Source of the DNA: Thermodesulfobacterium commune DSM 2178
GTDB taxonomy: Bacteria; Desulfobacterota; Thermodesulfobacteria; Thermodesulfobacteriales; Thermodesulfobacteriaceae
Assembly (NCBI RefSeq): GCF_000734015.1
Contig: NZ_CP008796.1
Location: 1,590,001 to 1,622,000 of the forward strand
Reading direction: 5' to 3'
DNA length: 32,000 nt
Positions 2,305 through 18,461 of this stretch are shown piece by piece; within the stretch, counting starts at the first letter, position 1; the number at the start of each line of letters is the position of its first letter. Below the pieces are notes generated by a model. That model ran no database searches. It was not told the origin of the DNA and worked only from the letters and a program-made list of their open reading frames with translations. The position numbers and the translations under genes are program-made.

Positions 2305-2331
2305 AAAATACGTTAGCAGGAGGGAGAAACC

Positions 2332-3708: not shown

Positions 3709-3741
3709 ACATAAACTAAGTTAGAACACAGGAGGGAAACT

Positions 3742-4068
3742 ATGCAAAAAGTAAACAGAAGAGATTTTATAAAGTTTTTAGGTATAACCTATGTAGCCTT
3801 TACCGTAGGGGTGCCTAAGATAGTTTATTCTCAGGAAAAGGTTAAAGAAAACTTCTTTGAAACCTCTGTAGGTAGAGAAAAGCTTGAGCTTATTAAAGCA
3901 AGACAGTCTGCTCAGTATAAGGACGATAAGATAGTAAGAGAAAAATTTAAAATAGCTGCAAGCCATCAAAATCCGATGATTAAAGAATTTTACACAAAGT
4001 TTGCCCAGCATCCTTTAAGTGGAATAAGCGAAAGACTTTTACATACCTATTATAAGAAAAGAAGATAA
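3742..4068 (+). CDS. hydB: [FeFe] hydrogenase small subunit with twin-arginine (Tat) signal peptide
   Basis: 108-aa ORF with AGGAGGGA upstream. The N-terminus MQKVNRRDFIKFLGITYVAFTVG is a twin-arginine signal. The C-terminal HQNPMIKEFYTKFAQHPLS..RLLHTYY parallels the C-terminus fused onto ORF 832-2304. Confidence 0.88.
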   Translation: MQKVNRRDFIKFLGITYVAFTVGVPKIVYSQEKVKENFFETSVGREKLELIKARQSAQYKDDKIVREKFKIAASHQNPMIKEFYTKFAQHPLSGISERLLHTYYKKRR

Positions 4069-4166
4069 GTCCAATCCCCTGGGGGGTAAAAATTATTTGG
4101 GAGGCCATCTCTGCATACCCTTCCCCTCCCTCCCCCAAGGGGTGTTTTTAAGGAGGTTGAAAAAAC

Positions 4167-5609
4167 TTGTTTAGAAAAGAAATTGATTTTCTGGGAGAAA
4201 AACTTGTTCCACAGGAAGCCTACTATGGTATTCACACCTTAAGGGCCTTAGAAAATTTTCCGCTATCTGAAGAAAGGGTTCATAGAGAGCTTGTCTGGGC
4301 TATAGGTTTGGTTAAAAAAGCCTGTGCCTTTGCTAACAAAGAGCTTGGTTTTTTAGAGGAAAAAAAGGCTTATGCTATTTTAGAGGCCTGTGAAGAACTT
4401 GCTGAGGGAAGGTTTGATGACCAAATTCTAATCCATCCTCTGGCAGGAGGTGCAGGCACCTCCTTTAACATGAACGTTAACGAAGTCATTGCTAATCGTG
4501 CTCTTGAAATTCTGGGTCATCCTAAAGGAAGGTATGAGATCGTGCATCCTATAGAAGACGTAAACCTACATCAGTCAACCAACGATGTTTTCCCAACCTC
4601 AGTGAAGATAGCGGTTTTAAGACTTTTGAAGGAGTTGGCTCAAGAGGTAGCACTTCTTCAAGGAGAGTTTCAGAAAAAGGAAAAAGAGTTTGCCCAAGTC
4701 TTAAAGGTTGGTAGGACTGAGATGCAAGATGCTTGCCCTGTAACTTTAGGGCAAGAATTTGGAGCTTGGGCTGAAGCCTTAAATCGAGACTGGTGGAGGT
4801 TAAATAAAGCCTCAGAAAGGGTAAGACAGGTAAACCTTGGAGGAACAGCTGTAGGTACAGGTCTAAACTGCCCCAACGAATTCGTAGAAATAGCCATAGA
4901 AAAGTTGAGAGAAATTACAGGACTTCCGGTGGCTAAAGCAGAAAACCTCTTTGAGGCTACACAAAATCTGGATGCTCTTTGTGAAGTTTCTGGGTTTTTG
5001 AAAACCTTAGCGGCAAACCTTATTAAAATAGCAGGAGACCTAAGATTTCTTTCTTCTGGACCTAAGGCAGGTATAGGAGAAATTAAACTTCCAGAGTTGC
5101 AGGCTGGTTCCTCTATCATGCCAGGAAAGGTGAACCCGGTTGTTCCTGAGATGGTAATTCAAGTAGGTATAAAGACGATAGCAGCAGACCATGCCATAAC
5201 TTTGGGATGTAGCCTTGGTAATTTAGAGTTAAACCCTTTTTTACCGCTTATCTCTCAAGAACTTATCACAAGCTTAAAGCTTCTTAAAAAAAGTTGTAAT
5301 ATCCTTAGAGAAAAATGTATATCAGGCATAACTGTTAATCAAGAACGATGTAAAGAATTGTTTAACCAAAGTGCTTGTGTGATCACAGCCTTTAGTCCCT
5401 ATTTAGGTTATGAAGTTTGTGCAGAGGTTTATAAAGAGGCTGTGAGTTCAGGTAAAAGGGTAGAAGAGATCTTGTTGGCTCGAGGTTATTTCACTGAAGA
5501 AGAGTTAAGGTTGATACTTGATCCTCAGGAGCTTACTACCCCAGGAATTGCCGGGTTAGAAAAGTTAAAAGAAATAATACAAAAAAGGGGGGATAAAGAA
5601 TGTTTTTAA
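4167..5609 (+). CDS. Aspartate ammonia-lyase / class II fumarase superfamily protein (aspartase-like)
   Basis: 480-aa ORF with a TTG start 9 nt after AAGGAGG. It carries the superfamily signature GSSIMPGKVNPV plus TEMQDACPVTLGQEF and HQSTNDVFPT. Its stop overlaps the hydG start. Confidence 0.85.
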   Translation: MFRKEIDFLGEKLVPQEAYYGIHTLRALENFPLSEERVHRELVWAIGLVKKACAFANKELGFLEEKKAYAILEACEELAEGRFDDQILIHPLAGGAGTSFNMNVNEVIANRALEILGHPKGRYEIVHPIEDVNLHQSTNDVFPTSVKIAVLRLLKELAQEVALLQGEFQKKEKEFAQVLKVGRTEMQDACPVTLGQEFGAWAEALNRDWWRLNKASERVRQVNLGGTAVGTGLNCPNEFVEIAIEKLREITGLPVAKAENLFEATQNLDALCEVSGFLKTLAANLIKIAGDLRFLSSGPKAGIGEIKLPELQAGSSIMPGKVNPVVPEMVIQVGIKTIAADHAITLGCSLGNLELNPFLPLISQELITSLKLLKKSCNILREKCISGITVNQERCKELFNQSACVITAFSPYLGYEVCAEVYKEAVSSGKRVEEILLARGYFTEEELRLILDPQELTTPGIAGLEKLKEIIQKRGDKECF

Positions 5610-7108
5610 ACTTTGAAACGGTAGAGACACAAAGTCTGGCAGATCAGATAATAAAAGAAAATGAAATAGAAAGGTATTTAGAGAAGGGAAGGGACTTTAT
5701 CAACGACGAGGAAATTTGGGAAAAATTAAACAAACATGTTGAGCCAGACCCGGTTAGGGTAAGAGAAATTTTAGCCAAGTCTCTTGCTATCGAGACCCTT
5801 GAACCTGATGAACTGGCGGTTTTGATAAACGTCAAAGACCCGGAACTTTGGGAAGAAATGTTTGCTACGGCAAGAGAGATTAAAAAGAAGGTATACGACA
5901 ACCGGATTGTTACCTTTGCGCCACTTTATTGTGGAAATCTTTGCATCAACAACTGTCTTTATTGTGGTTTTAGAAGAGAAAACAAGGTAATCAAGAGAAG
6001 GGTACTTACCATAGAAGAGGTTAAAAGAGAAGCAGAGGTTTTAGCAGGAGAGATAGGGCATAAAAGGCTGATAGTGGTTTATGGAGAGCATCCTGCTACC
6101 GGGGCTGAATATATTAGAGATACGATAGAGGCTATCTATTCGGTAAAGGTGAAGACCCGAAGGGGATATGGACAGATCAGGAGGGTAAACGTTAACGCTG
6201 CCCCTATGTCTATAGACGAGCTCAAGATGCTTAAGGAAGTAGGCATAGGAACTTATCAGGTGTTTCAAGAGACCTATCATCACGAAACCTATGCCCAAAT
6301 CCATCCCAAAGGAACGGTAAAACATCATTATCAGTGGAGGCTTTATTGTCATCACAGAGCTTTAGAGGCAGGTGTAGATGATGTAGGACTGGGGGTGCTT
6401 TTTGGTCTTTATGACTGGAGGTTTGAGTTGATGGGACTTTTATACCATGCACGAGACCTTGAGAAAAAGTTTGGGATAGGCCCACATACCATTTCCTTTC
6501 CCAGGCTTGAACCTGCGGCTAATACCCCCTTTGTGCAGGAGACAAAATATAAAGTTTCAGACGAGGATTTTAAAAAAGTAATCTGTTTAATCAGGCTGGC
6601 TGTCCCATATACGGGTATGATACTTACCGCAAGAGAACCTGCTCATATAAGAAGAGAAATCTTAGGTTTAGGAATTGTGACCCAAACGGATGCCTCAACC
6701 AAGATAGGAATAGGAGCTTATTCTGATAGGTATACAGAACAAGAGTTAGAAAGACAGCAGTTTCAGATAGGAGATCCTCGGAGTCTTGAAGAAGTAATAA
6801 GGGAACTTGCTGAGATGGGGTATATCACAAGCTTTTGCACTGCAGGTTATCGTTGTGGAAGAACAGGAGAAAGGATAATGGACCTCCTGGTTAAAGGGAA
6901 AGAACGAATCTTTTGTAAGTTAAATGCTGTCCTTACCTTTAAAGAATGGCTTGATGATTTTGCCTCAGAAGAAACTAAGGAGGTAGCCCAAAAGGTTATA
7001 GAAAAAGAGATGGAAGAACTTAAAGGTATGGTTCCTGAAGGGGTTTATCAAAAACTTTTAGAGTATTATCAGAGGATTGAGAATGGAGAGAGAGACCTTT
7101 ATTTCTAA
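5600..7108 (+). CDS. hydG: [FeFe] hydrogenase maturase HydG (radical SAM tyrosine lyase)
   Basis: 502-aa ORF with the radical SAM motif CINNCLYCGFRR after a roughly 110-aa N-terminal region. The ThiH/HydG-like core is followed by a C-terminal Cys region, FCTAGYRCGRTGERIMDL..IFC. It sits in a hydG-X-hydF-hydE context. Confidence 0.88.
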   Translation: MFLNFETVETQSLADQIIKENEIERYLEKGRDFINDEEIWEKLNKHVEPDPVRVREILAKSLAIETLEPDELAVLINVKDPELWEEMFATAREIKKKVYDNRIVTFAPLYCGNLCINNCLYCGFRRENKVIKRRVLTIEEVKREAEVLAGEIGHKRLIVVYGEHPATGAEYIRDTIEAIYSVKVKTRRGYGQIRRVNVNAAPMSIDELKMLKEVGIGTYQVFQETYHHETYAQIHPKGTVKHHYQWRLYCHHRALEAGVDDVGLGVLFGLYDWRFELMGLLYHARDLEKKFGIGPHTISFPRLEPAANTPFVQETKYKVSDEDFKKVICLIRLAVPYTGMILTAREPAHIRREILGLGIVTQTDASTKIGIGAYSDRYTEQELERQQFQIGDPRSLEEVIRELAEMGYITSFCTAGYRCGRTGERIMDLLVKGKERIFCKLNAVLTFKEWLDDFASEETKEVAQKVIEKEMEELKGMVPEGVYQKLLEYYQRIENGERDLYF

Positions 7109-7343
7109 GTTTACAGCCTTAGCTGAAAGGATAAAACAAACTTATGGAGTAAATCTTTGGTTGGTTGAGGTGCTTGGAAAAAGGCATTCTTATGTAGCTG
7201 GCCACAAAGAAGATAGCTTTTTGCCTCCAGAACCTATATACCTTAACGAGAGATTTGCGGTTGTTTCTAACGAGTGGGAGAAAATCCCAGAGGAAGAAAG
7301 AAAACAACTGATAAGTTTTTTAAAAGAGGATCTTTTAAAATGA
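7083..7343 (+). CDS. Small hypothetical protein (86 aa) between hydG and hydF
   Basis: ATG at 7083 lies 6 nt after GAGGA; the track's TTG at 7077 is less likely. The 5' end overlaps the hydG 3' end, and the TGA stop overlaps the hydF ATG (ATGA). I recognise no motif. The call rests on operon position and coupling signals. Confidence 0.55.
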   Translation: MERETFISKFTALAERIKQTYGVNLWLVEVLGKRHSYVAGHKEDSFLPPEPIYLNERFAVVSNEWEKIPEEERKQLISFLKEDLLK

Positions 7344-8620
7344 ATATACCTAAGGGACAAAGGCTTCACATAGCCCTTTTTGGAAGGAGAAACGTGGGAA
7401 AATCTTCTTTGATTAATGCTTTAACCGGACAAGAACTTGCGATTGTTTCGGATATTCCAGGAACTACCACTGACCCGGTAGAAAAAAGTATGGAGATTCT
7501 TCCCTTAGGGCCTGTGGTAATCATAGATACAGCTGGAATTGACGATGTAGGTAAACTTGGGGAGTTGCGGAAAAAGAAGTCTTATGAAGTGTTAAATAAA
7601 GCAGATTTGGTGTTGCTGGTAATTGACCCTATGACAGGTTTCGGAGAATTTGAGGAAGAGGTAGTAAAAAAGGCTAAGGAGTATGATACTCCGTTAGTGC
7701 ATGTGATAAATAAAATAGACCTTTATCCTCAGGCTAAAACACAAAAATTTCCAGAACCTAAGGTTTTCGTAAGTGCTAAGACTAAAGAAGGGATAGACGA
7801 GTTAAAACAGGTGATCATAAAGCATGCACCCAAAGACTGGGCTCTTCCAACTATAGTAGGAGATTTGATAAAACCTGGAGATTTTGTGGTATGTGTAGTC
7901 CCGGTAGATAAAGCAGCTCCTAAAGGTAGACTTATTTTGCCTCAACAGATGGTTATAAGAGACATTTTAGATAATGAAGCTATCGCCTTGGTGGTAAAAG
8001 AAAGGGAGCTTAGGTTTGTTTTTGAAAAGACCAAGGTTAAACCAAGTCTGGTGATAACAGATGCCTCGGTTTACACCAAAGTTTCTGCAGACACTCCACC
8101 AGACATAAGGCTTACGTCTTTTTCTGTTCTTTTCGCAAGATATAAGGGGGATTTGCAAACCCTGGTAGAAGGGGTTCTTGCTGTAAAGACACTTAAGCCT
8201 GGAGATAAAGTGTTGATCGCAGAGGCTTGTACCCATCATCCTGTAGAAGATGATATAGGTAGGGTAAAAATTCCCAGATGGCTTAGGGCTCAGGTAGGAC
8301 AAGACCTTGAAATAGAGGTAAAAGCAGGTGGAGGGCCTCTTCCTGAAAACCTTGAGCAATATAAACTGATCGTTCATTGCGGAGCTTGCATGCTAAATAG
8401 AAAAGAAATGCTTTCAAGGATTATGCAGGCTAAGAGTGCCAAGGTTCCTATCGTAAATTATGGGGTAATGTTGGCCTACATGCATGGGATTTTAAAAAGA
8501 GCTCTTTCTCCTTTTCCTCATTTGCAACGGTTGGTTGTTTCTGAAATCAGAGATTATAAAAAAATCGCAGATGACTTTAAATGCATAAAAGCTTTCTTTT
8601 TAAAAAGAACAAACAACTAA
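7340..8620 (+). CDS. hydF: [FeFe] hydrogenase maturase HydF (GTPase scaffold)
   Basis: GTPase motifs are present: GRRNVGKSS (P-loop), DTAG and NKID. The C-terminal cluster motif is EACTHH...HCGAC. I moved the start from 7274 to ATG 7340 (MNIPKGQRLHIALFGRR), which overlaps the upstream stop. Confidence 0.9.
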   Translation: MNIPKGQRLHIALFGRRNVGKSSLINALTGQELAIVSDIPGTTTDPVEKSMEILPLGPVVIIDTAGIDDVGKLGELRKKKSYEVLNKADLVLLVIDPMTGFGEFEEEVVKKAKEYDTPLVHVINKIDLYPQAKTQKFPEPKVFVSAKTKEGIDELKQVIIKHAPKDWALPTIVGDLIKPGDFVVCVVPVDKAAPKGRLILPQQMVIRDILDNEAIALVVKERELRFVFEKTKVKPSLVITDASVYTKVSADTPPDIRLTSFSVLFARYKGDLQTLVEGVLAVKTLKPGDKVLIAEACTHHPVEDDIGRVKIPRWLRAQVGQDLEIEVKAGGGPLPENLEQYKLIVHCGACMLNRKEMLSRIMQAKSAKVPIVNYGVMLAYMHGILKRALSPFPHLQRLVVSEIRDYKKIADDFKCIKAFFLKRTNN

Positions 8621-9618
8621 CCGAAAACAACCTGATAGAAAAGGCTTTATCAGGGATAAAGTTTTCAAAAGAAGAAATTGCCTTTCTTCTTTTAGAAGCC
8701 AACCCTGAGTGGGTATATGAGATAGCTAATGAGATAAAGAAACGAGTAAAAGGAAATGTAGTTTATTTAAGAGCGATCATCGAGTTTTCCAACTATTGTA
8801 GAAACAACTGCCTTTATTGTGGCATAAGAAGAGATAACAGGGAACTCAAACGTTATCGCATGAAGGAAGAAGAAATTTTAGAAATAGCAGAAAAAATAAG
8901 CAAACAAGGTTTTAAGACCATAGTTTTACAATCTGGTGAGGACCCTTTTTGGGATGCTAAGAGGTTGAGTCGTTTGATTAAAGAAATTAAAAATTTAGGG
9001 GTGGTAGTTACCCTATCTGTAGGTGAAATGGATTATGAGGATTATAAGGTTTTAAAAGAGGCTGGAGCTGACAGGTTTTTACTCAAACATGAAACGATAG
9101 ACAAAAGACTTTTTAGTTGGTTAAAGCCAGATACTAATTTAACAAAGAGGGTTCGTTGTTTAAACTGGTTGAAGAAGCTTGGATATGAAACTGGAACAGG
9201 TTGTATCGTAGGGTTACCTGGACAGAGAATAGAGACCTTGGTCGAAGACCTTCTTTTTTTACAAGAAATTAGCCCAGAGATGGTAGGGCATGGCCCATTT
9301 ATTCCTCATCCTCAAACTCCTCTGGCTTTTTTCCCTTCTGGAAACCCTTGGTTAACCCTTAAACTGATAGCCTTAACCAGGATGATTCTTCCAAAAGCTA
9401 ACATTCCTGCCACTACAGCTTTAAACGTTTTAGCACCTGATTTAAGGTTTAAGGCTTTTCTAGCTGGTGCTAATGTTCTTATGCCAGACTTAACTCCAGA
9501 TCAATATAAGCTCCATTATGAAATATATCCAGGAAAAGGAAGTTACCGGATAAATTTAGAGGAATATTTTCGGTTTTTTGAAAAAGAAAACCTAAGGACT
9601 GACCTGAAACCTGTTTAG
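8581..9618 (+). CDS. hydE: [FeFe] hydrogenase maturase HydE (radical SAM, biotin-synthase-like)
   Basis: 345-aa ORF with radical SAM motif CRNNCLYCGIRRDN. It has BioB/HydE-like length and layout and is the last gene of the hyd cluster. Confidence 0.85.
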   Translation: MHKSFLFKKNKQLTENNLIEKALSGIKFSKEEIAFLLLEANPEWVYEIANEIKKRVKGNVVYLRAIIEFSNYCRNNCLYCGIRRDNRELKRYRMKEEEILEIAEKISKQGFKTIVLQSGEDPFWDAKRLSRLIKEIKNLGVVVTLSVGEMDYEDYKVLKEAGADRFLLKHETIDKRLFSWLKPDTNLTKRVRCLNWLKKLGYETGTGCIVGLPGQRIETLVEDLLFLQEISPEMVGHGPFIPHPQTPLAFFPSGNPWLTLKLIALTRMILPKANIPATTALNVLAPDLRFKAFLAGANVLMPDLTPDQYKLHYEIYPGKGSYRINLEEYFRFFEKENLRTDLKPV

Positions 9619-9656: not shown

Positions 9657-10061
9657 TTAAGGAATAAACGGAACGTTTAAAAGTTTTAGCCCCAAGTAAG
9701 TTATCCCTAAACAAGCCACTCTTTTAACCCAGACAGGGCTTAATCTTTTAGCAATTCTAGGTCCTACAAATCCGGCAGCAATTGCTCCTACAGCCATGAC
9801 TACAAACAATAAAAGGTCAGTTTGTCCAAAAAAGAAGTAACGTGAGCTTGCCATTAAGGTGTTGAAGAAAATGGCTAAGAGAGAACTACCGACCACCACA
9901 TAAATCGGAAGACCCATAATTACTGTCATAAGGGGAACTACAAAAGGTCCTCCTCCAAAACCACCTAAACTGGAGGCAACTGCTATGAGAAAACCTCCTA
10001 TGGCACCTATTATCATGTTAGCATAAAACTCTTGTCCCCAAAATTCTATTCTTAACTTCAT
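9657..10061 (-). CDS. TauE/SafE (DUF81) family membrane protein, second 4-TM half
   Basis: Four hydrophobic segments and the motif GGFGGGPFVVPLM. ATG at 10061 lies 8 nt downstream of AGGAGG. The track's GTG at 10070 overlaps the SD and is unlikely. Confidence 0.7.
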   Translation of the reverse strand: MKLRIEFWGQEFYANMIIGAIGGFLIAVASSLGGFGGGPFVVPLMTVIMGLPIYVVVGSSLLAIFFNTLMASSRYFFFGQTDLLLFVVMAVGAIAAGFVGPRIAKRLSPVWVKRVACLGITYLGLKLLNVPFIP

Positions 10062-10073
10062 GGTTTTCACCTC

Positions 10074-11348
10074 CTAACTAGATTTTTTTTCCTTAGCTTC
10101 TTTAGCACGTTTTAGGTACTCCTGAAGTATAGCCCTTTCCTTCTTATTCTTTTCAAGATATCCTGGTGTTGTCTGCCAGAAGAGAAGGGCAGCAAGGATC
10201 AACAGGATAATACCAAAGATGAACTTATACTCATCTACAGTTACAAACTGGTTTAATAGAGGACCTATAAAACCACCGATTAGCATAAAAATACCTACTC
10301 CTATACCAAGTTTCCAGTTGATAAATCCTATTTTTGAATAGTTGTAGATTCCTGCGGCTTGACTAAAGAGAACTGTTGGCATAACTGAACCAGCAACCAC
10401 ACCGTGAGGCAATCCATAGATGAGAATCAATAAGGGATTTAAGATAAAACCACCACCTGCTCCCATGATCACCCCAAAGGTACAAATAACAAAGGATAAA
10501 ATGAGGGGTCCAAAAATGTTGGTAGAAGTTCCAGCTACAGGAAAATATACAGTAGGAAAGGAAATTTGATGGGTTAGTTGAATTGGATCGCTTTTTACTT
10601 CCTTGTTGGCTACAGCTAATACAGTAAAATCTCCTTTAGGGGCATTACCAGGAAGAGTTATCTCTGCTTCAAAGGTACCATCGGGATTATTCTTGATTTT
10701 AGTAAGCACAAAGATTTTTTCAAAATCCTTTAACCTGGTTTGAATTAATCTGGCAGCCTCTTTGGTTATTTCTTTTTTATCAGTAAGAGGATCTAATTTA
10801 ATACCTCTTGAACCTATAATGGCTCTTAGAACTGTAGATTTCCACACATCGATTTGTTTAATTTCTTTAGGAGGAGTGATAAAGGCAACATTAGCGTTGC
10901 TTTCTCTTAAAAATTCTCCTATTTTCCATTTCTTATTTTGTTTGTACTTTTGATAGATTTCCTTTACCGGTTTTTCTTCTACCGTACCGTTTTTGTCTAT
11001 CTTAGCTATATAGTCCTCATTAATCCAAATTTGATAGAAAGCAGGTATTTCTTTACTTAAATAAAATTTAAAATCTTTCCTATCAAGTCTACTTACCTGG
11101 ACTTTTTCTTTTGAAGTGATTTCGATGAAGTTTACTTTGTAGCCCTCAGGGACTTTACCTGTAAGTTTAATCTTTTCACCACCTTTGAAAGAGGTTTTGT
11201 CAGCCTTTAACTCAATCTTTAAAGGTATTGCTTCAGCCTCAGGTTTGGTAGTATTCCCCTGTGGCTGAGCTAAAAGGTTTTTAGAAAAAACTAATAAAAA
11301 GAAAAACAAAAGAAAAGACCATAAGTTTAACTTAAACTTGTACCGCAT
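10074..11348 (-). CDS. Signal peptide + ~290-aa extracytoplasmic domain fused to the first 4-TM half of a TauE/SafE (DUF81) permease
   Basis: Start taken at ATG 11348 (MRYKFKLNLWSFLLFFFLLVFSKNLLA), with GGAGGGAGG upstream. The C-terminal third has four TM segments with GAGGGFILNPLL. The stop is a TAG at 10074-10076. Confidence 0.7.
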   Translation of the reverse strand: MRYKFKLNLWSFLLFFFLLVFSKNLLAQPQGNTTKPEAEAIPLKIELKADKTSFKGGEKIKLTGKVPEGYKVNFIEITSKEKVQVSRLDRKDFKFYLSKEIPAFYQIWINEDYIAKIDKNGTVEEKPVKEIYQKYKQNKKWKIGEFLRESNANVAFITPPKEIKQIDVWKSTVLRAIIGSRGIKLDPLTDKKEITKEAARLIQTRLKDFEKIFVLTKIKNNPDGTFEAEITLPGNAPKGDFTVLAVANKEVKSDPIQLTHQISFPTVYFPVAGTSTNIFGPLILSFVICTFGVIMGAGGGFILNPLLILIYGLPHGVVAGSVMPTVLFSQAAGIYNYSKIGFINWKLGIGVGIFMLIGGFIGPLLNQFVTVDEYKFIFGIILLILAALLFWQTTPGYLEKNKKERAILQEYLKRAKEAKEKKSS

Positions 11349-11534
11349 AACCTGCCTCCCTCCTTTGGATTTTTGAGGTTTCTCGATCAAATATCATGCC
11401 TAAACAAAAAATGGTTAAAATTAGAAAAATAAAGAATTTTAAAAGATAAAAAATATATAGGTTTTGATACTTTGGACCTTTAAGCGCAGGGGGTTGTCCC
11501 GTTAAGGACAGATCGTTACAAAAGGTTTTGTTAG

Positions 11535-12974
11535 TTAGGTAAAAAACCTCAGGTTGTATTTTCTGAAAAGGAATTCTTGGAAGGTTTTGATCGTTTTGAA
11601 AACCTGTTTTAGTTGATCTCTGTCTTTTTTAGAAAGTTCTTGCGGGTTTAAATAGTTGTCAGGGGGTTGTCCGGTTTGGAGTTTTTTGGCTTGATTCAAA
11701 AATTGAAGAGAAAGGATAAACCTGTATCCTTCTTTTAATTCAGAGGCAAAGTCTAAAGAGAGAATCCCTTCCTCTTTTAGAGCATCGATTCTATCAAAGG
11801 TATTTGTATGCCAGAGGTTGTACTCTAAAGCCAGAGCTCTAATCCCCTGGACTATGGGAAAAATGGCTGTTTTTTTAAGGTCTAATTTACCTTTGTTAGG
11901 GCCTTCTTTTTCGGTTATAAACCTTCCCAAGAAATTAAGAGGTGATTCAAACCTTATGGCTTCTGCCGCAAGACACACGATAAGTCCTTTATTTTTACTT
12001 ATTTTTTCTTTTATCCAACCTCTGATCTCCTTTTCTATCTCTTCATCTCCATAAACCATTCGAAAATCTAAAAAAATACAAAGATTAAGCAGAGCCTCTT
12101 TTTGAGAACAGTCCATCCAGTTAGAAAGCCGCTTTTTCCAGGTTTGCAGATCTCCTCGCCAAAGGGGATTAGAAATCATAACCCCACCAGGACAAGGAGG
12201 AAATCCTACTTTTAAAAGATTTTCGATAAAAGTAGAAGAAAAGCTTTCAAAAAAAAGGTCTACCTCTTTTTTTCTATCTGGCAAATCTTCATAGATTAAG
12301 GCGTTATCTTGGTCGGTTTTAAAACTTTGTTCTTTTCTTCCTTCACTTCCAAGTACAAAGAATCCAAACTTAGCCGAAAAATAAAGCTCTGTCTCCTTTA
12401 AGGTTATCTCCCAGGTTTTTTTTATAAACCTGTCGTTTATTTCTGCAAGGTATTTCCCTAAGTACTCCGGGTTAAAACCTTCGGAAATTTGATTTAACAA
12501 TGCTTCTTTTACCAGGCTATAAAGTTTGGCTAACTCCTCTAACTCGTGGGCCAACTCCACTTGATATAGAAGAGAAACCAGGTTTTTGCTTTGAAAACTT
12601 ATGATGTCAGTGTCTTCAAGTACTCCTTGAAGGATTCCTTTATCAAAAACCGCTACTTTTCTTAGTCTTTTTTCTGCCATAAGGAGGATGGCTTCAAACA
12701 AACGGTGGTCTGTAGAAAGGCTGACAAGAGGAAAGGTGGCTATTTCTTTAGCTTTTATTCCAAAAGGGTCTTTCCGTTGATATACCACTTTTTGTAAAAT
12801 GTCCCTTTCAGTGATAATCCCTAAGCCTTCTTTTCCTTGCACCACAACAAAACTGTACTCTTTTTCTACCATAAGTTTAATTACTTTATCTAAGGAATCT
12901 TCTTCCCCCACAATAAGAGGAGTTTTTAAGGGTAGATTTTTTAAAGGTTGATCAAAAAATGAATTCTGGAGCAT
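11535..12974 (-). CDS. CBS-pair + DUF294-type nucleotidyltransferase + DUF294_C protein (catalytic motif intact)
   Basis: 479-aa ORF. It has a CBS-like N-terminus (GIITERDIL...VAVFDKGILQGVLEDTDI) and the nucleotidyltransferase motif LGSEGRKEQSFKTDQDNALI. The C-terminal helical domain is similar to that of ORF 13641-15455. Confidence 0.75.
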   Translation of the reverse strand: MLQNSFFDQPLKNLPLKTPLIVGEEDSLDKVIKLMVEKEYSFVVVQGKEGLGIITERDILQKVVYQRKDPFGIKAKEIATFPLVSLSTDHRLFEAILLMAEKRLRKVAVFDKGILQGVLEDTDIISFQSKNLVSLLYQVELAHELEELAKLYSLVKEALLNQISEGFNPEYLGKYLAEINDRFIKKTWEITLKETELYFSAKFGFFVLGSEGRKEQSFKTDQDNALIYEDLPDRKKEVDLFFESFSSTFIENLLKVGFPPCPGGVMISNPLWRGDLQTWKKRLSNWMDCSQKEALLNLCIFLDFRMVYGDEEIEKEIRGWIKEKISKNKGLIVCLAAEAIRFESPLNFLGRFITEKEGPNKGKLDLKKTAIFPIVQGIRALALEYNLWHTNTFDRIDALKEEGILSLDFASELKEGYRFILSLQFLNQAKKLQTGQPPDNYLNPQELSKKDRDQLKQVFKTIKTFQEFLFRKYNLRFFT

Positions 12975-12975
12975 T

Positions 12976-13623
12976 TTAAATAATTTTTAGCGGTAGTTGT
13001 TTCAGTTTTTTATTCCTGTAAGAATAAACTAATTTTAAAAAAAGCAAAGCAGTCATGTAGGCATCTTCTAAAGCATTGTGAAAACTGGTGGTAGGTAAAT
13101 CATATTCTTCTAACAGTTCATTAAGCTTAGGAATTCTATCTAAGGTCTTTTTAGGATAAAGGTCTAAGACATCAAACCCATAAAAAGAGAGGTTAAGGTT
13201 TAGTTCTTCTTTGAGATGTTTTTTTAGCATTTCTAAGTCAAACTCTAAAAAATATCCTACCAATACTGCACCCTTGGTAAACTCTAAAAATTGATGCAAG
13301 GCCTCCTTTCTTTCAAGACCGTTTTTAAGTTTGTCTGGTGTAATCCCGTGAATCTTGATAGAGTCTTCAATTCTACACAGGTCTGTTTTTAAGTATAAAA
13401 TTAGTTTTTCAGAAAAAGAAAGGGTAAGATCAACAATCTTATAAGCACCTACAGAGATAACCTCGTCTTTTTTTAAATCAAGCCCTGTGGTTTCGGTGTC
13501 TATCACCACGAAAGTGGTATCTTTTACTTTTTTATTTAGGTCGACCTCCCAACTTAAGTTTTTCTTTTTTCGAAAAAAAGTATAGTAAGTCCTCTTTAAA
13601 GTTGTGGTTAACACCTTCCACAC
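12976..13623 (-). CDS. DEDDh 3'-5' exonuclease (DnaQ / DNA polymerase III epsilon-like)
   Basis: 215-aa ORF with Exo I VIDTETTGL, Exo II GYFLEFDLEML and Exo III FHNALEDAYMTA. The gap to the downstream gene is 1 nt. Confidence 0.8.
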   Translation of the reverse strand: MWKVLTTTLKRTYYTFFRKKKNLSWEVDLNKKVKDTTFVVIDTETTGLDLKKDEVISVGAYKIVDLTLSFSEKLILYLKTDLCRIEDSIKIHGITPDKLKNGLERKEALHQFLEFTKGAVLVGYFLEFDLEMLKKHLKEELNLNLSFYGFDVLDLYPKKTLDRIPKLNELLEEYDLPTTSFHNALEDAYMTALLFLKLVYSYRNKKLKQLPLKII

Positions 13624-13640
13624 CTTCTTAAGATCCTCGT

Positions 13641-15455
13641 TTAACTTAAATAGCTTAGACGGTATTTTTCAAAAAGCATTTTTTGTAAATTTTCTATGAA
13701 TTTAAAGACTTCTTTTAAAAGGTTTAGGTCTCCTTTTTCTAACTCAGATGGGTCTAAATAATCGTGAGGTTCTTGTTCTCGTTTAAAATTATCTATCTGA
13801 ATTTTAAAACGTAAGGTGGTAAGAAATTTATAAGCCTCTTTCAGGTCTTTAGCTGTTTCAGGTTTAATACTTCCTGAGGATTCTAAACAAGAAATCCGTT
13901 TAAACGTATTCATGGTTTTAATCCCCTGTTCTAAACTAAGTACCCTTACCATACAAACCAAAGGTAAAACCCCTGATTTAAACAGGTTTAATTTACCTTT
14001 AAAAGGACCAGATTTTTCTACCAGGAGTTCTTTAAACAAACCTAAAGGTGGTTTGAGTTTAACTGCATCCAAGGCTAAATATGGTAAAATACGGTCGTTT
14101 TTTTTAATCTTTTGTAAAATATTTTGGTAAAAAAAGTCTGCCTTTTCAGGTTGGATACCTATGAAACGAAGGTCAAAGAAATTAGCTTTTTTACCTATAT
14201 CTTTTAGGTCAGGATAGGCTATCCAATGAGAAAAAGTTTTTTCCCATTCGTTTAAGGTTTTTACCCAGTAAGGTTGGGTAAGATATTCCTCTTCTATTTC
14301 AACCCCTAAAAACTTCAGATTTTTGGCCAATAACAAAGCAACCTCAAAAGCTTCTTCTGAGTTGTTTTTAATTAGAAAAATTTTTAGTTTTGTTTTAAAA
14401 CTGGCTTCTCTTCTTCCATGGGCTCCGATAACCATTAGGCTTGGTAGAAGAGAAAGGTTTCTTTCAGATAGGGTTAAAAGAACTGCCTTTTTGATGATCC
14501 CATCCCTTATTTCAGAAAGATATCTTCCTATCAACTCTGGGTCTTTTTCTTTTATGGCAAAATCTATGGCAGAATAAAAACAGTGGTAATAAATTTTTTT
14601 TAGTTCTTCTAAAGAGTTGGTTCTTTCTATTTCTTTAGTTATGGTAATAAGGTTTTTGCTGCCAAGGGAGATGATGTCGGTATCCTCTAAAATACCTACA
14701 GGTATTCCTTCATCAACCACCACTATTTTCCTTATACGGTGTTGTGTCATAAGAAGCATAGCTTGAGATAAGGGGGCTTCTTTTTCTAAATACACCAAAG
14801 GGAAAGAAGCTATATTTTTGGCTTTAGTTTCTTTTTTATCCAACCCCTGATATAGAAGTTTTTTGATAACGTCCCGCTCAGTTATAATCCCATATCCTTT
14901 TTCTAATTTAACTAAACAAGCGGTGACGTTTTTTTCTACCATCTCCTGAATAACCTTTTCTACGGAGTTTTCTCCATCTACGATGACAGGGGGTTTTAGG
15001 TTCAATTTTGAGAGAGGGACAGAGCTAAAAGTTCCCCACTGGTCTTTTTTCTGGTTTAAAGCTTCTGCCAGTTTTTGAGCCAGTTTTTGGGTATAAAAAC
15101 TCTGGACTACTGAATAGTTTTGAAAAAGTTTTAAAAAATCTTCTTTTTTAATTAAAAATACCACGGTATCTTCTACCGCACGGGCTGAATGGTCAAGTTC
15201 CTGATCAGTTATTAAGGGTAAATAACCAAAGGTTTCTCCTTCTTGAAGTTGGTCTAAGATAGTACCTTTTTTTTCTAAGACTACATATCCTTTCCTTATA
15301 AGATATAAATATTCAGAGAGGTCTTTTTCCCGGTAGATAACCTCGTTTTTAGGATAGACTTTTACCTTTATTTTTTCTACTAAAGTAGATATAACAGATG
15401 AGGGGAGCCCCCTAAAAGGGGGTACTTCCCTTATAAACCTTTCTGCATCAAGCAT
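13641..15455 (-). CDS. Cyclic-nucleotide-binding domain + CBS pair + DUF294-type nucleotidyltransferase-like domain (degenerate catalytic motif) + DUF294_C
   Basis: 604-aa ORF. The N-terminal cNMP-binding-like region reads FRGLP...YREKD...YLIRKGYV...GETFGY. It is followed by a CBS pair (GIITERDVI...IVVVDEGIPVGILEDTDI) and a nucleotidyltransferase-like segment, IGAHGRREASFKTKLKIFLI. Confidence 0.75.
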   Translation of the reverse strand: MLDAERFIREVPPFRGLPSSVISTLVEKIKVKVYPKNEVIYREKDLSEYLYLIRKGYVVLEKKGTILDQLQEGETFGYLPLITDQELDHSARAVEDTVVFLIKKEDFLKLFQNYSVVQSFYTQKLAQKLAEALNQKKDQWGTFSSVPLSKLNLKPPVIVDGENSVEKVIQEMVEKNVTACLVKLEKGYGIITERDVIKKLLYQGLDKKETKAKNIASFPLVYLEKEAPLSQAMLLMTQHRIRKIVVVDEGIPVGILEDTDIISLGSKNLITITKEIERTNSLEELKKIYYHCFYSAIDFAIKEKDPELIGRYLSEIRDGIIKKAVLLTLSERNLSLLPSLMVIGAHGRREASFKTKLKIFLIKNNSEEAFEVALLLAKNLKFLGVEIEEEYLTQPYWVKTLNEWEKTFSHWIAYPDLKDIGKKANFFDLRFIGIQPEKADFFYQNILQKIKKNDRILPYLALDAVKLKPPLGLFKELLVEKSGPFKGKLNLFKSGVLPLVCMVRVLSLEQGIKTMNTFKRISCLESSGSIKPETAKDLKEAYKFLTTLRFKIQIDNFKREQEPHDYLDPSELEKGDLNLLKEVFKFIENLQKMLFEKYRLSYLS

Positions 15456-15456
15456 G

Positions 15457-17001
15457 CTATTCTATCCCCACACCCAGATAGGTTCTAACCTTTTCCTCTT
15501 CAAACTTTTCTTGAGCTTCTTTTTCTGGTGTCAAAAGAGATACTAAGATAGCCATGATAAAACTTGCTGGCATAGAAATAAGAGCAGGATTTTTCCAAGG
15601 GAAGATGGGAGCAGGGTTTTTAAAAATGTCTACCCAAACAGTGGGACTCAAGATGATAAGCACCACAGAAAGGGTAACCCCTGTCAAGATGCCTGCTACT
15701 ACACCTGCAGTAGAAAATTTTTTCCAGAAGATAGAAAGAAGCAGAGAAGGAAAGTTAGCACTGGCAGCTATAGCAAAGGCAAGTCCTACCATAAAAGCTA
15801 CGTTTTGTCCCTTAAAAGCTATACCAAGAAAAATCGCAAGGATTCCTAAGATAAGGGTGGCTAACCTTGCCACTTTTACCTGTTCCTCTTCTGTGGCTCT
15901 TCCTTTTTTTATTACGTTGGTGTATAAGTCATGAGAAAGGGCTCCTGCTCCTGCTAAAGTAAGTCCTGCAACCACCGCAAGAATGGTAGCAAAGGCTACC
16001 GCAGCAATAAATCCTAAAAATATCGTTCCTCCCACAGCCTCCGCCAAAAGAGGAGCTGCCATATTTCCGCCTTTTTCTATACTTTTAATCAAGTTTTCTC
16101 CTACTATAGCAGCCGAACCAAATCCTATGATAAAAGTGAGAATGTAAAAGTAACCGATAAATCCTGTAGCATAAAAAACCGACTTTCTGGCTTCTTTAGC
16201 GTCAGGAACGGTATAAAATCTCATAAGTATGTGAGGGAGACCTGCTGTTCCAAACATAAGGGCTATACCAAGAGAAATAGCATCCCATGGATTGGCTACA
16301 AGACCTCCTGGAAGAAGCCTTTTTTCTCCATACTTTTCACTGATAAAACCAAACAATTCATTAAAGCTAAAACCAAACTTAACCAACGTGAAAATGGCAA
16401 GCACCGTAGCTCCACCAAGCAAAAGACAAGCCTTGATAATCTGAACCCAGGTAGTAGCAATCATGCCACCGAAAAGAACATAAATAATCATTATAGTCCC
16501 TACTAAAACCACCGCCAAATCATAGGGTAATCCAAACAAAAGTTTTATAAGAGAACCAGCTCCTACCATCTGAGCAATAAGGTAAAGAAGAACGGTAGCC
16601 AAAGACCCAAAAGAAGAGGCAATCCTTATAGGCTTTTGCTTAAGCCTGTAAGCTACCACATCTGCAAAGGTATACTTACCAAGGTTTCTTAATTGCTCAG
16701 CTATAAGAAACATCACTATCGGCCAGCCTACCAAAAATCCGATGGAATAAATCAAACCATCATAACCTTTTAACGCTACCAACCCAGCAATCCCAAGGAA
16801 AGAGGCTGCACTCATGTAATCTCCAGCCAACGCAAGTCCATTTTGAAATCCAGTGATACTTCTTCCTGCTGCATAGTACTCAGAAGCTGTCTTAGTCCGT
16901 TTAGCAGCCAAGTAGGTAATATAAAGAGTAGTTAAAGTAAATAAAAAGAAAAACAAAATAGAAACCACGTTAGGTTGCCCTAAGGTTGTCTGCATTTCCA
17001 T
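15457..17001 (-). CDS. actP: Sodium:solute symporter family protein, cation/acetate symporter ActP-like
   Basis: 514-aa polytopic ORF of about 13 TM segments with SSF-type composition. It is immediately preceded by a DUF485/YjcH-like gene, as at characterised actP loci. Confidence 0.8.
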
Positions 17002-17018
17002 CTTACATCCCCCTTATT

Positions 17019-17312
17019 TTAATGTTTTTCTATTTCTCTTTTAATCTCTTCAACCAACCTGTCATAGACGCTGTTTGCCCAAAGGGTATAAACTCCAGTT
17101 AACAGCCAGGAAAAAATTATTACTGAAATCCCCAGAGGAATTCCTAAAGGTATTGATCCGGTAACCTTAATGGCTAAAAAATCTTTTTTAAAAGCTAAAA
17201 GGTAGATAAAACCATAATAAATTAACAACTGGATAAAAGTAAGAGCAAAAGCTACCTTGTTTTTTTGAGACATTAACGTTTGAAACTTAGGAGAACTTAA
17301 CACCTCCTTCAT
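17019..17312 (-). CDS. DUF485 (YjcH-like) small inner-membrane protein
   Basis: Two TM segments. Start taken at ATG 17312 (MKEVLSSPKFQTLMSQKNK), 9 nt after GGAGG; the track start at 17363 lacks an SD. It lies directly upstream of the actP-like gene. Confidence 0.7.
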   Translation of the reverse strand: MKEVLSSPKFQTLMSQKNKVAFALTFIQLLIYYGFIYLLAFKKDFLAIKVTGSIPLGIPLGISVIIFSWLLTGVYTLWANSVYDRLVEEIKREIEKH

Positions 17313-17449
17313 ATTTAAACACCTCCTTTTTTGAGATTTATTTTCTGATAAAATAGATAGCAATAGTTATGCCAAAACAAAGAATATAGAATTATCAATG
17401 ATTAGATGGGAAAACACCAAAAATAGTAAAAACTTTGAGGAAAATTTCC

Positions 17450-18043
17450 TCAATTATTTTTAAAGCCCAAACAAGACAAGAGATGAGATCTTAACTGGGG
17501 TATCCCCTTAGATTCTTTACAGGAGATTAGGAAAAGAGGGGTTTCTGGATTAGGTTTGAATGTTTTTTGATAAACAGAGGCTTGACGTTCTACTTCTCTA
17601 AAGGATAAAGTATCTATCTTGTTTAAGACTATACAGTGAGGTTTTTTAAGGTGTTTTACAAACTCAACCAGCTGGATGTCTGCTTCATCGGGATTACGTC
17701 TTATATCAAAAATAAGTACAAGATTTCTAAAGTCTCTCACTGCTTTTAAATATCCCTCTACCAGGTATTGCCAGTGTTTTTTTACCTCAACAGGGACTTT
17801 AGCAAACCCGTAACCAGGTAGGTCTACTAAATAAAACTTAAAATCTATTCTAAAAAAGTTTAAGGCTTTGGTAAAGCCAGGAGTAGAGGACACTTTGGCT
17901 ACCTTTTTACGGTTTAAAAAGGCATTGATTAAAGAGGATTTACCTACGTTTGACCTTCCTAAAAAGGCAATTTCAGGAAATTCTGGAGGAGGCAGGTCCT
18001 CTAACTTAAAAACACTTTTAACAAACTCGATATGCTTAAACAT
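17450..18043 (-). CDS. engB: Ribosome-biogenesis GTPase EngB/YsxC/YihA
   Basis: 197-aa ORF with GRSNVGKSSLINAF (G1), DLPGYG (G3) and NKID (G4). Length and layout are typical of EngB. Confidence 0.88.
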   Translation of the reverse strand: MFKHIEFVKSVFKLEDLPPPEFPEIAFLGRSNVGKSSLINAFLNRKKVAKVSSTPGFTKALNFFRIDFKFYLVDLPGYGFAKVPVEVKKHWQYLVEGYLKAVRDFRNLVLIFDIRRNPDEADIQLVEFVKHLKKPHCIVLNKIDTLSFREVERQASVYQKTFKPNPETPLFLISCKESKGIPQLRSHLLSCLGFKNN

Positions 18044-18066: not shown

Positions 18067-18461
18067 GAGGGCAGGGTTTAAGTAAGCCGGGTTCTGTTAC
18101 CTGGGGAAATTTTCCCCAGGCGGTGATTATTTCTCTGAGAAGAGGGTTACCCCTCTTCTTAAGCGGCCTACCTGAGCCTTAGCGGGCGGGGCACCCATGG
18201 CTCTGTTTGGCCTTGCTCCGGACGGGGGTTGCCGTGCCACCAGGTGTTACCACCTGGTGCGGTGGGCTCTTACCCCACCTTTTCACCCTTGCCCGCACCA
18301 GAAAGGAAAAAATCCTTTCTGGCCGCTGGCGGTCTGTTTTCTGTGGCCCTTTCCAGGGATTACTCCCTCCGGGTGTTACCCGGCGTCCTCCCCTGTGGAG
18401 CCCGGACTTTCCTCCCCAGGGAATTAATCCCTGGAGCAATCACCTCTTAAACCCTGCCCTC
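18067..18461 (-). ncRNA. rnpB: RNase P RNA, bacterial type A
   Basis: The minus strand contains the universal blocks GGAAAGTCCGGGCTCC (complement of about 18397-18412) and ACAGAACCCGGCTTA (complement of about 18086-18100). A P1 helix is formed by GAGGGCAGGGTTTAAG at the 5' end pairing with CTTAAACCCTGCCCTC at the 3' end. The region is about 395 nt and conspicuously GC-rich against an AT-rich background. Confidence 0.95.

Follow-up and report, generated by a model that had tools for sequence, protein, structure and literature searches.

The 32,000-nucleotide window of Thermodesulfobacterium commune DSM 2178 analyzed here (contig NZ_CP008796.1) contains a five-gene operon that joins a small DUF485 membrane subunit and an ActP-like symporter to two paralogous DUF294 nucleotidyltransferases (NT) and a DEDDh exonuclease (EXO), in the order DUF485-ActP-NTdead-EXO-NTactive. 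The core association of transporter, NT, and EXO is already published, with its mechanism unsolved. What is new in this locus, as judged from the sequences, is that the NT copy bearing the cyclic nucleotide-binding-like (cNMP-like) domain is catalytically dead but under purifying selection, and that an extra, short copy keeps the catalytic motif. The reading favored here, with a probability of about 0.4, is that these genes encode a reversible nucleotidylylation switch acting on monocarboxylate uptake or activation, with the exonuclease as its antagonist.

The two NT paralogs share out the features of the COG2905/DUF294 family, and the full set is found in neither copy alone. The architecture of PP_0354 and PA3233 of Pseudomonas (cNMP-like domain, two CBS domains, DUF294, and DUF294_C) is present only in the 604-amino-acid (aa) protein, where the Pfam match to DUF294 is weak (1e-9) and a match to GlnD_UR_UTase lies inside the C-terminal domain. 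The 479-aa protein is devoid of a cNMP domain and matches DUF294 strongly (4e-38), with a DUF294_C match at 4e-47. An alignment of family members shows that the motif GSEGRxEQxxxTDQDN, which has the form G-x11-D-x-D, is almost invariant. At this place the 604-aa copy reads GAHGRREASFKTKLKI, and the GFPPCPG loop that follows is also lost, so that nucleotidyl transfer by the usual two-metal mechanism would not be expected of this protein, whereas the appended short copy should be capable of it, since it retains the motif as GSEGRKEQSFKTDQDN (G209-x11-D221-x-D223). The long copy is probably a non-catalytic sensor or regulatory subunit and the short copy probably the catalytic one. This reverses one element of the sequence-only reading, which had placed a ligand-sensing nucleotidyltransferase next to ActP: the copy in that position is the one with the lost motif, and the active site is found in the extra copy.

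The arrangement is not confined to this genome. The five-gene layout occurs also in Thermodesulfobacterium thermophilum DSM 1276 (locus L001), in L081/L082, which are contigs encoding a protein that NCBI names from Thermodesulfobacterium sp. TA1, and in a relative, L083, and the long copies of L081 and L083 carry the same substitutions in the catalytic motif. The short copy is 99% identical to a database protein named from Thermodesulfobacterium and 97% identical to its counterpart at the T. thermophilum locus, while identity to L083 amounts to 61% for the short copy and 56% for the long one. Comparison with L081 gave ratios of nonsynonymous to synonymous substitution rates (dN/dS) of 0.083 for the dead copy, 0.080 for the active copy, and 0.096 for the exonuclease, values that are approximate because dS is near saturation (1.1 to 1.4). 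The dead copy is under purifying selection; that it might be a pseudogene was ruled out by its intact 604-codon frame, its conservation in three lineages, and its dN/dS. In a neighbor-joining tree both copies fall in a thermophile clade with the long forms of Aquificota and Thermodesulfovibrio, the dead copy on a long branch, a pattern consistent with a lineage-specific duplication long ago, after which the constraint on the catalytic core was relaxed. Membership of the short copy in a widespread clade of ~480-aa DUF294 proteins (Thauera, Desulfuromonadales, and Thiocapsa) was considered and ruled out, because it is only 30 to 34% identical to these proteins but 44 to 47% identical to, and clusters with, the full-length cNMP-bearing proteins of Aquificaceae and Thermodesulfovibrio.

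Degenerate NT paralogs also form a second, separate clade, found in L038 (a Desulfomonile metagenome-assembled genome, MAG) and L065 (a Thermodesulfobacteriota MAG). These upstream copies carry the degenerate motifs GEAGRKETSIYPPNDN and GGAGRMEEAFALNRQ, and each adjoins an active copy and an exonuclease. The sequences indicate that a non-catalytic partner subunit evolved at least twice, independently, which suggests that the enzyme functions in oligomeric form, with its CBS (Bateman) modules as the plausible means of assembly. Modules of this kind typically dimerize.

The AlphaFold2 (AF2) model of the 479-aa NT has a mean predicted local distance difference test score (pLDDT) of 92.7 and a predicted TM-score of 0.85. 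Besides CBS proteins, its best match in the PDB is DrrA/SidM (6yx5_B, Foldseek E value of 3.3e-9), and it also matches the N-terminal deadenylylation domain (1v4a, 5e-8) and the adenylylation domain (3k7d, 1.3e-6) of GlnE, the DrrA and GlnE matches having modest TM-scores of 0.44 to 0.69. As in GlnE, GlnD, and DrrA/SidM, a Pol-β transferase domain with G-x11-D-x-D is followed by a helical, substrate-binding-type C-terminal domain, and these fold matches agree with the published placement of DUF294_C in the same Pfam clan as the GlnD/GlnE helical domain (PMC3710099). A sequence search of the PDB with the NT returned CBS-domain proteins only and no solved DUF294 domain. GlnE likewise consists of two homologous transferase modules with divided labor, and GlnE and DrrA all write or remove AMP on protein tyrosines. 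There are also differences from GlnE, GlnD, and DrrA. Sequence identity is only 13 to 15%, and the sensors differ as well, a CBS pair and a cNMP-like barrel taking the place of ACT or PII-binding regions. Reversal is presumed to fall to a separate DEDDh exonuclease, whereas GlnE uses a second transferase domain and GlnD an HD domain, and one of the two modules here, unlike those of GlnE, is without any catalytic carboxylates.

The cNMP-like domain (residues ~60 to 95 of the 604-aa protein) lacks the canonical phosphate-binding Glu and Arg, as it does in almost all family members. Across the family the cassette reads FG[YFL]xSL...S[ST]TA, compared with FGELGL...RSA in the CRP of Escherichia coli. 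For this reason cAMP or cGMP sensing is doubtful, as is the usual annotation of the domain as "cyclic nucleotide-binding," and the domain probably does not bind cAMP or cGMP as its ligand in the classical manner. These residues also bear on a different explanation of the locus, in which the NT would make a nucleotide-derived messenger (an oligonucleotide, whether linear or cyclic, or else a metabolite to which a nucleotide has been added, for instance an acyl-adenylate analogue), the EXO would degrade it, and the cNMP-like domain of the dead paralog would be the receptor. The dead copy does retain a cNMP-like β-barrel and a CBS pair, to which a product of this kind could bind, and some DEDDh enzymes, of the Orn type, degrade short oligonucleotide signals. 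Right after the short DUF294 gene in L083 (6784 to 7569, minus strand) and L084 (4586 to 5341, minus strand) there is, moreover, a gene with a metallo-β-lactamase fold, although its precomputed label as Apyc1-like (the anti-Pycsar cyclic-nucleotide phosphodiesterase family) was not reproduced by a Pfam scan, which gave Lactamase_B and Lactamase_B_2 only. A messenger of this type is nonetheless improbable, given a cNMP-like domain without the canonical residues in nearly all members, an NT fold to which, in the PDB search, GlnE and DrrA come nearer than any solved transferase of the cyclase type, and a neighborhood in which no effector gene is conserved besides the transporter and acetyl-CoA synthetase (Acs).

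The exonuclease directly adjoins both NT genes, sitting between them with gaps of 17 and 1 nt. Its residues D42, E44, D129, H182, and D187 are invariant or nearly so among 41 homologs, as expected of a DEDDh enzyme; its best NCBIfam match, PRK09145, scores 145 bits and stays under the cut-off of 189, so that equivalog membership is not assigned. The AF2 model (pLDDT of 88.8) has the DinG exonuclease domain, a DnaQ domain, Pol III epsilon, and PolC as its nearest solved folds, and matches by sequence to PolC, Cas2-DEDDh, and DnaQ chains have E values of 1e-11 to 2e-18, the Foldseek matches having E values of 1e-9 to 1e-12. In contrast to DnaQ/Pol III epsilon, PolC, DinG, Cas2-DEDDh, and RNase T, the EXO is a stand-alone protein of 215 aa with a family-specific N-terminal helix and a C-terminal KLKxLPL tail. 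In the loci examined it lies beside NT and sodium:solute symporter (SSS) genes and never beside polymerase, helicase, or CRISPR genes. No NT-EXO fusion was present among 53 matched exonuclease homologs, a search that reached close relatives only. A role in anti-phage defense was set aside, as a PADLOC scan gave no match for the active NT and only generic DEDDh or cNMP-domain matches for the other two proteins.

By its model, the EXO looks like an ordinary nucleic-acid 3'-5' DEDDh exonuclease, and an RNA or DNA substrate stays a live rival for that reason. The NT would then tail an RNA at its 3' end with untemplated nucleotides, the RNA being the mRNA of the transporter or of acs, a small RNA, or a tRNA-like molecule, and the EXO would trim them, so that expression would be controlled and not the activity of the transporter. 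Sequence and model both ally the EXO with enzymes of the epsilon, PolC, DinG, and RNase T type, DUF294 belongs to the Pol-β nucleotidyltransferase superfamily, which includes RNA tailing enzymes (PMC3710099), and mRNA degradation has been speculated upon by Henriquez et al. However, the closest solved folds of the NT are protein AMPylases and not CCA-adding enzymes or poly(A) polymerases, and Pfam detects an RNA-binding domain in neither protein. Rfam and tRNA scans for an RNA partner found no family and no tRNA in or next to the operon, where the intergenic spaces measure only 1 to 17 nt, and the presence in locus L005 (see below) of two adjacent transporters, each having an NT and an EXO to itself, is harder to square with a shared RNA target. 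We consider a nucleic-acid switch of this kind unlikely, if the least unlikely of the alternatives.

Conservation of the gene neighborhood ties the NT, the EXO, and the transporter together. A scan with the conserved DUF294 motifs, using one genome per species, gave at least 596 confirmed loci, and the best 80 were annotated with our own open reading frame (ORF) calls, phmmer, and unbiased clustering of neighbors, the cluster representatives being checked against Pfam. Fifty-two of the 80 encode a long-form DUF294 protein of ~600 to 650 aa, the cNMP-bearing size (12 of these 52 are tabulated as DUF294-only). An exonuclease lies within 7 kb of the NT in 41 of the 52 long-form loci, and 33 of the 48 whose flanks are long enough have it directly downstream; within the same distance are an SSS transporter (35/52), a DUF485 (15/52) or DUF4212 (18/52) small subunit, and Acs (21/52). 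The separate ~480-aa clade (Thauera, Desulfuromonadales, Thiocapsa, and Accumulibacter) has the exonuclease in only 2 of 28 loci, and the contrast makes NT-EXO pairing a specific trait of the long forms. The loci cover Aquificota, Nitrospirota, Campylobacterota, several Desulfobacterota-type lineages, Gammaproteobacteria (Amphritea), and Binatia, and with at least six lineages represented the synteny is not an artifact of sampling close genomes. The linkage to which the sequence-only reading drew attention is conserved across phyla far beyond chance.

These counts bear directly on the view that there is no functional link at all, that is, that a housekeeping exonuclease and unrelated DUF294 sensors stand beside ActP by chance while the long copy decays. 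It could appeal to the generic annotation of the exonuclease homologs as "DNA polymerase III subunit epsilon" and to the absent acetate phenotype in Pseudomonas. It is very improbable all the same, as the NT and EXO are adjacent across distant phyla at the frequencies just given, the pair is co-regulated by ErdR and has phenotypes in common with actP, and the frame of the long copy is intact, with low dN/dS, across lineages whose long copies are 56% identical.

Several loci point to the transporter as the partner of the pair. L005 (6336 to 15968) has two complete modules side by side, one of the DUF4212 type and one of the DUF485/ActP type, each with its own NT and EXO, and in L022 (659 to 15708) the same two modules lie ~5.5 kb apart. 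Their gene orders are EXO-DUF4212-SSS-YggT-NT and NT-EXO-DUF485-ActP, the latter followed by Acs in L005. These double modules argue that each NT-EXO pair serves its own transporter. In seven loci, a small membrane gene of the YggT family separates the gene of the DUF4212-type transporter from that of the NT. In two Desulfobacterales-type MAGs (L061, 79 to 2187; L076, 6924 to 9086) the EXO forms part of a fusion protein of ~700 aa in total, encoded directly upstream of the DUF294 gene, that also comprises an N-terminal two-helix membrane anchor and a PAS domain; this suggests that in some lineages the EXO is a regulated, membrane-proximal enzyme.

The symporter itself scores 763 bits against NCBIfam NF006903 ("cation/acetate symporter ActP," cut-off of 750), while remaining below the equivalog cut-offs of TIGR02711 (E. 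coli ActP; 695 versus 1099 bits) and of MctC (NF058657; 624 versus 670 bits). It is probably a monocarboxylate importer of the acetate/pyruvate/propionate type, and its substrate may be acetate, pyruvate, propionate, or lactate. Its dN/dS relative to L081 is 0.045. The gene of the DUF485 small subunit lies 17 nt upstream, as in transporters of the ActP plus YjcH type, and Price et al. proposed, on the basis of cofitness, that permeases of the ActP type require DUF485 as a component. The systems of the E. coli type (acs-yjcH-actP) and those composed of DUF4212 and a VC_2705-family SSS are likewise two-component symporters with a small membrane subunit; the DUF485 and DUF4212 subunits are each cofit with their permease, and each type is found with an NT-EXO pair. 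Unlike in the E. coli type, acs is not adjacent in the Thermodesulfobacterium operon, and enterobacteria have been described as being without CrbS/R and the ACTU motif. By eye, the second transmembrane helix ends alike in the two small subunits, with W-A-N-x-x-Y-D-R in DUF485 of the window and A-M-N-R-I-D-R in DUF4212 of L074 (23 to 298), a resemblance that hints at homology or at convergence at a cytoplasmic site.

The closest relatives with genetic data are PP_0354/PP_0353 of P. putida KT2440 (PA3233/PA3232 in P. aeruginosa and Pflu5625 in P. fluorescens), the same two-gene module with the same domain architecture, which in strain PAO1 adjoins yjcH-actP as in the Thermodesulfobacterium operon. 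The neighborhood around PA3232-PA3235 that the sequence-only reading named is real (PMC9765439; PMC9927547), but the association had already been published, both as a member of the CrbS/R (MxtR/ErdR) regulon and through the cofitness data of Price et al. The P. aeruginosa cluster is induced ~16-fold on propionate (PMC9765439), Pflu5625 is in the CrbS/R regulon, and PP_0354/PP_0353 form an operon whose promoter is bound by ErdR (PMC8402216; PMC9927547) and are among the genes most dependent on MxtR/ErdR (bioRxiv 10.64898/2026.09.07.749794). The Pseudomonas module is tied to the assimilation of acetate, propionate, and pyruvate. Growth on pyruvate is impaired by deletion of PP_0353 (EXO), actP-I, or yjcH and not by deletion of PP_0354 (NT) (PMC9927547; bioRxiv 10.64898/2026.09.07.749794). 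DUF4212-SSS transporters of Shewanella amazonensis and P. stutzeri are cofit with a neighboring "COG2905 (RNAse T domain protein)" (Price et al., bioRxiv 10.1101/072470); this wording conflates two genes, and to judge from the usual gene order the cofit one is probably the exonuclease. The function of the module is still called unclear in the 2026 preprint (bioRxiv 10.64898/2026.09.07.749794), and the literature search returned no paper that connects ActP or YjcH with nucleotidylation or AMPylation.

In the favored nucleotidylylation switch, whose chemistry, target, direction of regulation, and heteromer we infer, the NT would sense adenosine-type ligands through its CBS pair and another ligand through the cNMP-like domain. 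It would nucleotidylate a protein component of the uptake or activation pathway, most likely the cognate transporter complex and alternatively Acs, and thereby throttle the pathway. The EXO would hydrolyze the protein-nucleotide phosphodiester, releasing a nucleoside monophosphate and restoring activity, which would be chemically the same reaction as on a 3' terminal nucleotide. In the Thermodesulfobacteriaceae the NT would have been subfunctionalized: the copy in the ancestral position would have kept the cNMP-like and CBS sensors and lost catalysis, the second copy would have lost the cNMP domain and kept catalysis, and the two would assemble as a hetero-oligomer, probably through their CBS (Bateman) modules. 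Throttling uptake would be physiologically sensible, because unrestrained acetate activation drains ATP and CoA, as is known from work on Acs regulation. A pair made of a negative writer and a positive eraser would explain why EXO mutants resemble transporter mutants and NT mutants do not. The writer/eraser proposal of the sequence-only reading thus stands as far as the NT fold near DrrA and GlnE and the pyruvate genetics of P. putida are concerned, and sits less well with an EXO of nucleic-acid type. A more specific form of the switch, in which a DnaQ-type DEDDh enzyme is a protein de-nucleotidylylase that erases GlnE/DrrA-like AMP/UMP marks from the SSS transporter complex or Acs, as part of a widespread and so far unrecognized carbon-uptake switch that the Thermodesulfobacteriaceae would have dissected into an allosteric pseudoenzyme sensor and a catalytic subunit of its own, is put forward only tentatively and would more readily be doubted than accepted. 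The probability left over by the switch and the three alternatives belongs to mechanisms outside all of them.

A number of observations weigh against the switch. The TM-scores of the fold matches are modest, as noted above, and the Pol-β fold is common to many transferases that do not modify proteins. The nearest neighbors of the EXO model all act on DNA or RNA 3' ends, and we know of no DEDDh enzyme that removes a nucleotide from a protein. The saturation of dS leaves the estimates of selection approximate. On propionate, PP_0354 and PP_0353 mutants both grow worse and actP-I/yjcH mutants do not (bioRxiv 10.64898/2026.09.07.749794); because of this difference the transporter is not the sole target, and simple writer/eraser antagonism does not explain a defect that both mutants have. 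With 20 mM acetate, neither P. putida mutant has a phenotype (PMC9927547; bioRxiv 10.64898/2026.09.07.749794). Finally, the literature search found no biochemical study showing a substrate or activity for a DUF294 protein or its partner exonuclease.

The positions of the genes and of the elements upstream of them are given in Table 1. The five minus-strand genes, their spacing, and their domains are as the sequence-only reading described them, and the co-transcription that it deduced is plausible: transcription from a single sigma-54 promoter is the most economical reading, because the genes are 1 to 17 nt apart, a conserved sigma-54 promoter element lies upstream, and a terminator-like hairpin stands before the promoter. 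This hairpin, at the end of engB, marks the 5' boundary of the operon. The ATG at 17312 is taken as the start of the DUF485 gene because a strong ribosome-binding site, AAAGGAGGTG, precedes it; the ORF list extends the frame to a TTG at 17363, and homologous loci (L081 and L083) annotate the 97- to 98-aa form.

Table 1. Genes and regulatory elements of the DUF294-ActP locus (positions in the 32,000-nucleotide window)
Feature	Positions	Strand	Basis
Five-gene operon	11535-17312	minus	ORF list; consecutive gaps of 17, 1, 17, and 1 nt
DUF485/YjcH, small membrane subunit of symporter, 97 aa	17019-17312	minus	Pfam DUF485, 102 bits
ActP-subfamily sodium:solute symporter, 514 aa	15457-17001	minus	Pfam SSF, 386 bits
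Long DUF294 paralog, 604 aa	13641-15455	minus	cNMP_binding, two CBS, DUF294, and DUF294_C
DEDDh exonuclease (EXO), 215 aa, GTG start	12976-13623	minus	Pfam RNase_T, 90 bits
Short DUF294 paralog, 479 aa	11535-12974	minus	Two CBS, DUF294, and DUF294_C
Sigma-54-type (-24/-12) promoter element TGGCATAACTATTGCT	17359-17374	minus	~50 nt upstream of DUF485 start codon
Terminator-like hairpin and T-run, end of upstream EngB gene	17435-17453	minus	8-bp stem TTGAGGAAATTTTCCTCAA, then AGTTTTTACT

The promoter element is the single match to the sigma-54 consensus TGGCAYN5TTGCW in the 32-kb window, where 0.07 would be expected. When the window is aligned with L001, L081, and L083, the GG and TTG(C) elements of this site do not vary, while the flanks diverge. 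The same consensus is found just upstream of the NT-EXO-DUF485-ActP operons of the Nitrospirota loci L005, L044, and L057, and at the start of the NT gene in L022 and L075. A -35/-10-like site at 17383 to 17412 was set aside and is not relied on, because the scan for sigma-70-type promoters (13 sites) did no better than the shuffled expectation (14.5). In several of the Nitrospirota loci, including L057 and L075, an NtrC-type sigma-54 activator is encoded upstream (from Pfam for L039 and L057), and several of these loci also have a histidine kinase fused to SSF. With a sigma-54 promoter driving NT-EXO-DUF485-ActP-Acs downstream of this kinase and activator, they resemble the SLC5/STAC sensor-kinase systems CbrA/CbrB and CrbS/CrbR, and the Amphritea loci have a large hybrid histidine kinase and a LuxR-type regulator that are read as CrbS/CrbR-like. 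The Thermodesulfobacterium window, in contrast, has the sigma-54 promoter only: its gene annotation contains no two-component system and no acetyl-CoA synthetase gene, and the activator must be encoded elsewhere. The locus also departs from the Pseudomonas module in having the NT twice, as a dead copy that bears the cNMP domain and an active one that has none, in its host, a thermophilic sulfate reducer, and in its promoter, which is of the sigma-54 type instead of an ACTU site for the LuxR-type CrbR, no ACTU search having been made. On these grounds it is not assigned to the CrbS/CrbR regulon.

The remainder of the window holds [FeFe]-hydrogenase and maturase genes, a split TauE-like transporter, engB, the RNase P RNA, and housekeeping genes. 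The class A RNase P RNA (18069 to 18455, minus strand; 302 bits, full length) was the only hit of the Rfam and tRNA scans. It shares its strand with engB and the operon but lies beyond engB, ~700 nt upstream of the DUF485 start codon, and looks unrelated to the operon; it accounts for a GC-rich stretch full of spurious ORFs. On the plus strand, positions 832 to 9618 carry two genes resembling [FeFe]-hydrogenase large subunits, a lyase of the aspartase/fumarase class, and maturase genes (a radical-SAM plus BATS protein assigned as HydG, HydF by Pfam, and a radical-SAM protein assigned as HydE), which adjoin the operon with no apparent link to it. A transporter of the TauE/SafE family at 9657 to 11390 (minus strand) is split into two consecutive ORFs, as it is in L081 (11624 to 13310) and L083 (7730 to 9429). 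An extra N-terminal domain of ~290 aa and the N-terminal half of TauE make up the first ORF (438 aa); the C-terminal half is encoded by the second (137 aa). Because three lineages share this split, it is not a frameshift artifact. A perfect sigma-54 consensus lies just upstream of the split gene in L081.

The NT-EXO module is among the most strongly regulated targets of the Pseudomonas two-component system for acetate and short-chain fatty acids and occurs from Aquificota to Gammaproteobacteria. The present locus adds to it a version from a thermophile in which, under a sigma-54 promoter, a pseudoenzyme sensor copy and a catalytic copy are separate. This natural separation of function, with sensing in the dead copy and catalysis in the short one, tells which protein to assay and which to add as its regulator, and proteins from a thermophile are good candidates for biochemical and structural work. 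The occurrence of one NT-EXO pair per transporter, the membrane-anchored PAS fusions, and the second origin of a dead copy narrow the target toward the transporter complex. If the RNA reading is true, the module would be a new post-transcriptional control of transporter expression; if protein modification is true, it would represent a new eraser chemistry for bacterial AMPylation or UMPylation and a new regulatory layer governing how acetate and pyruvate are taken up.

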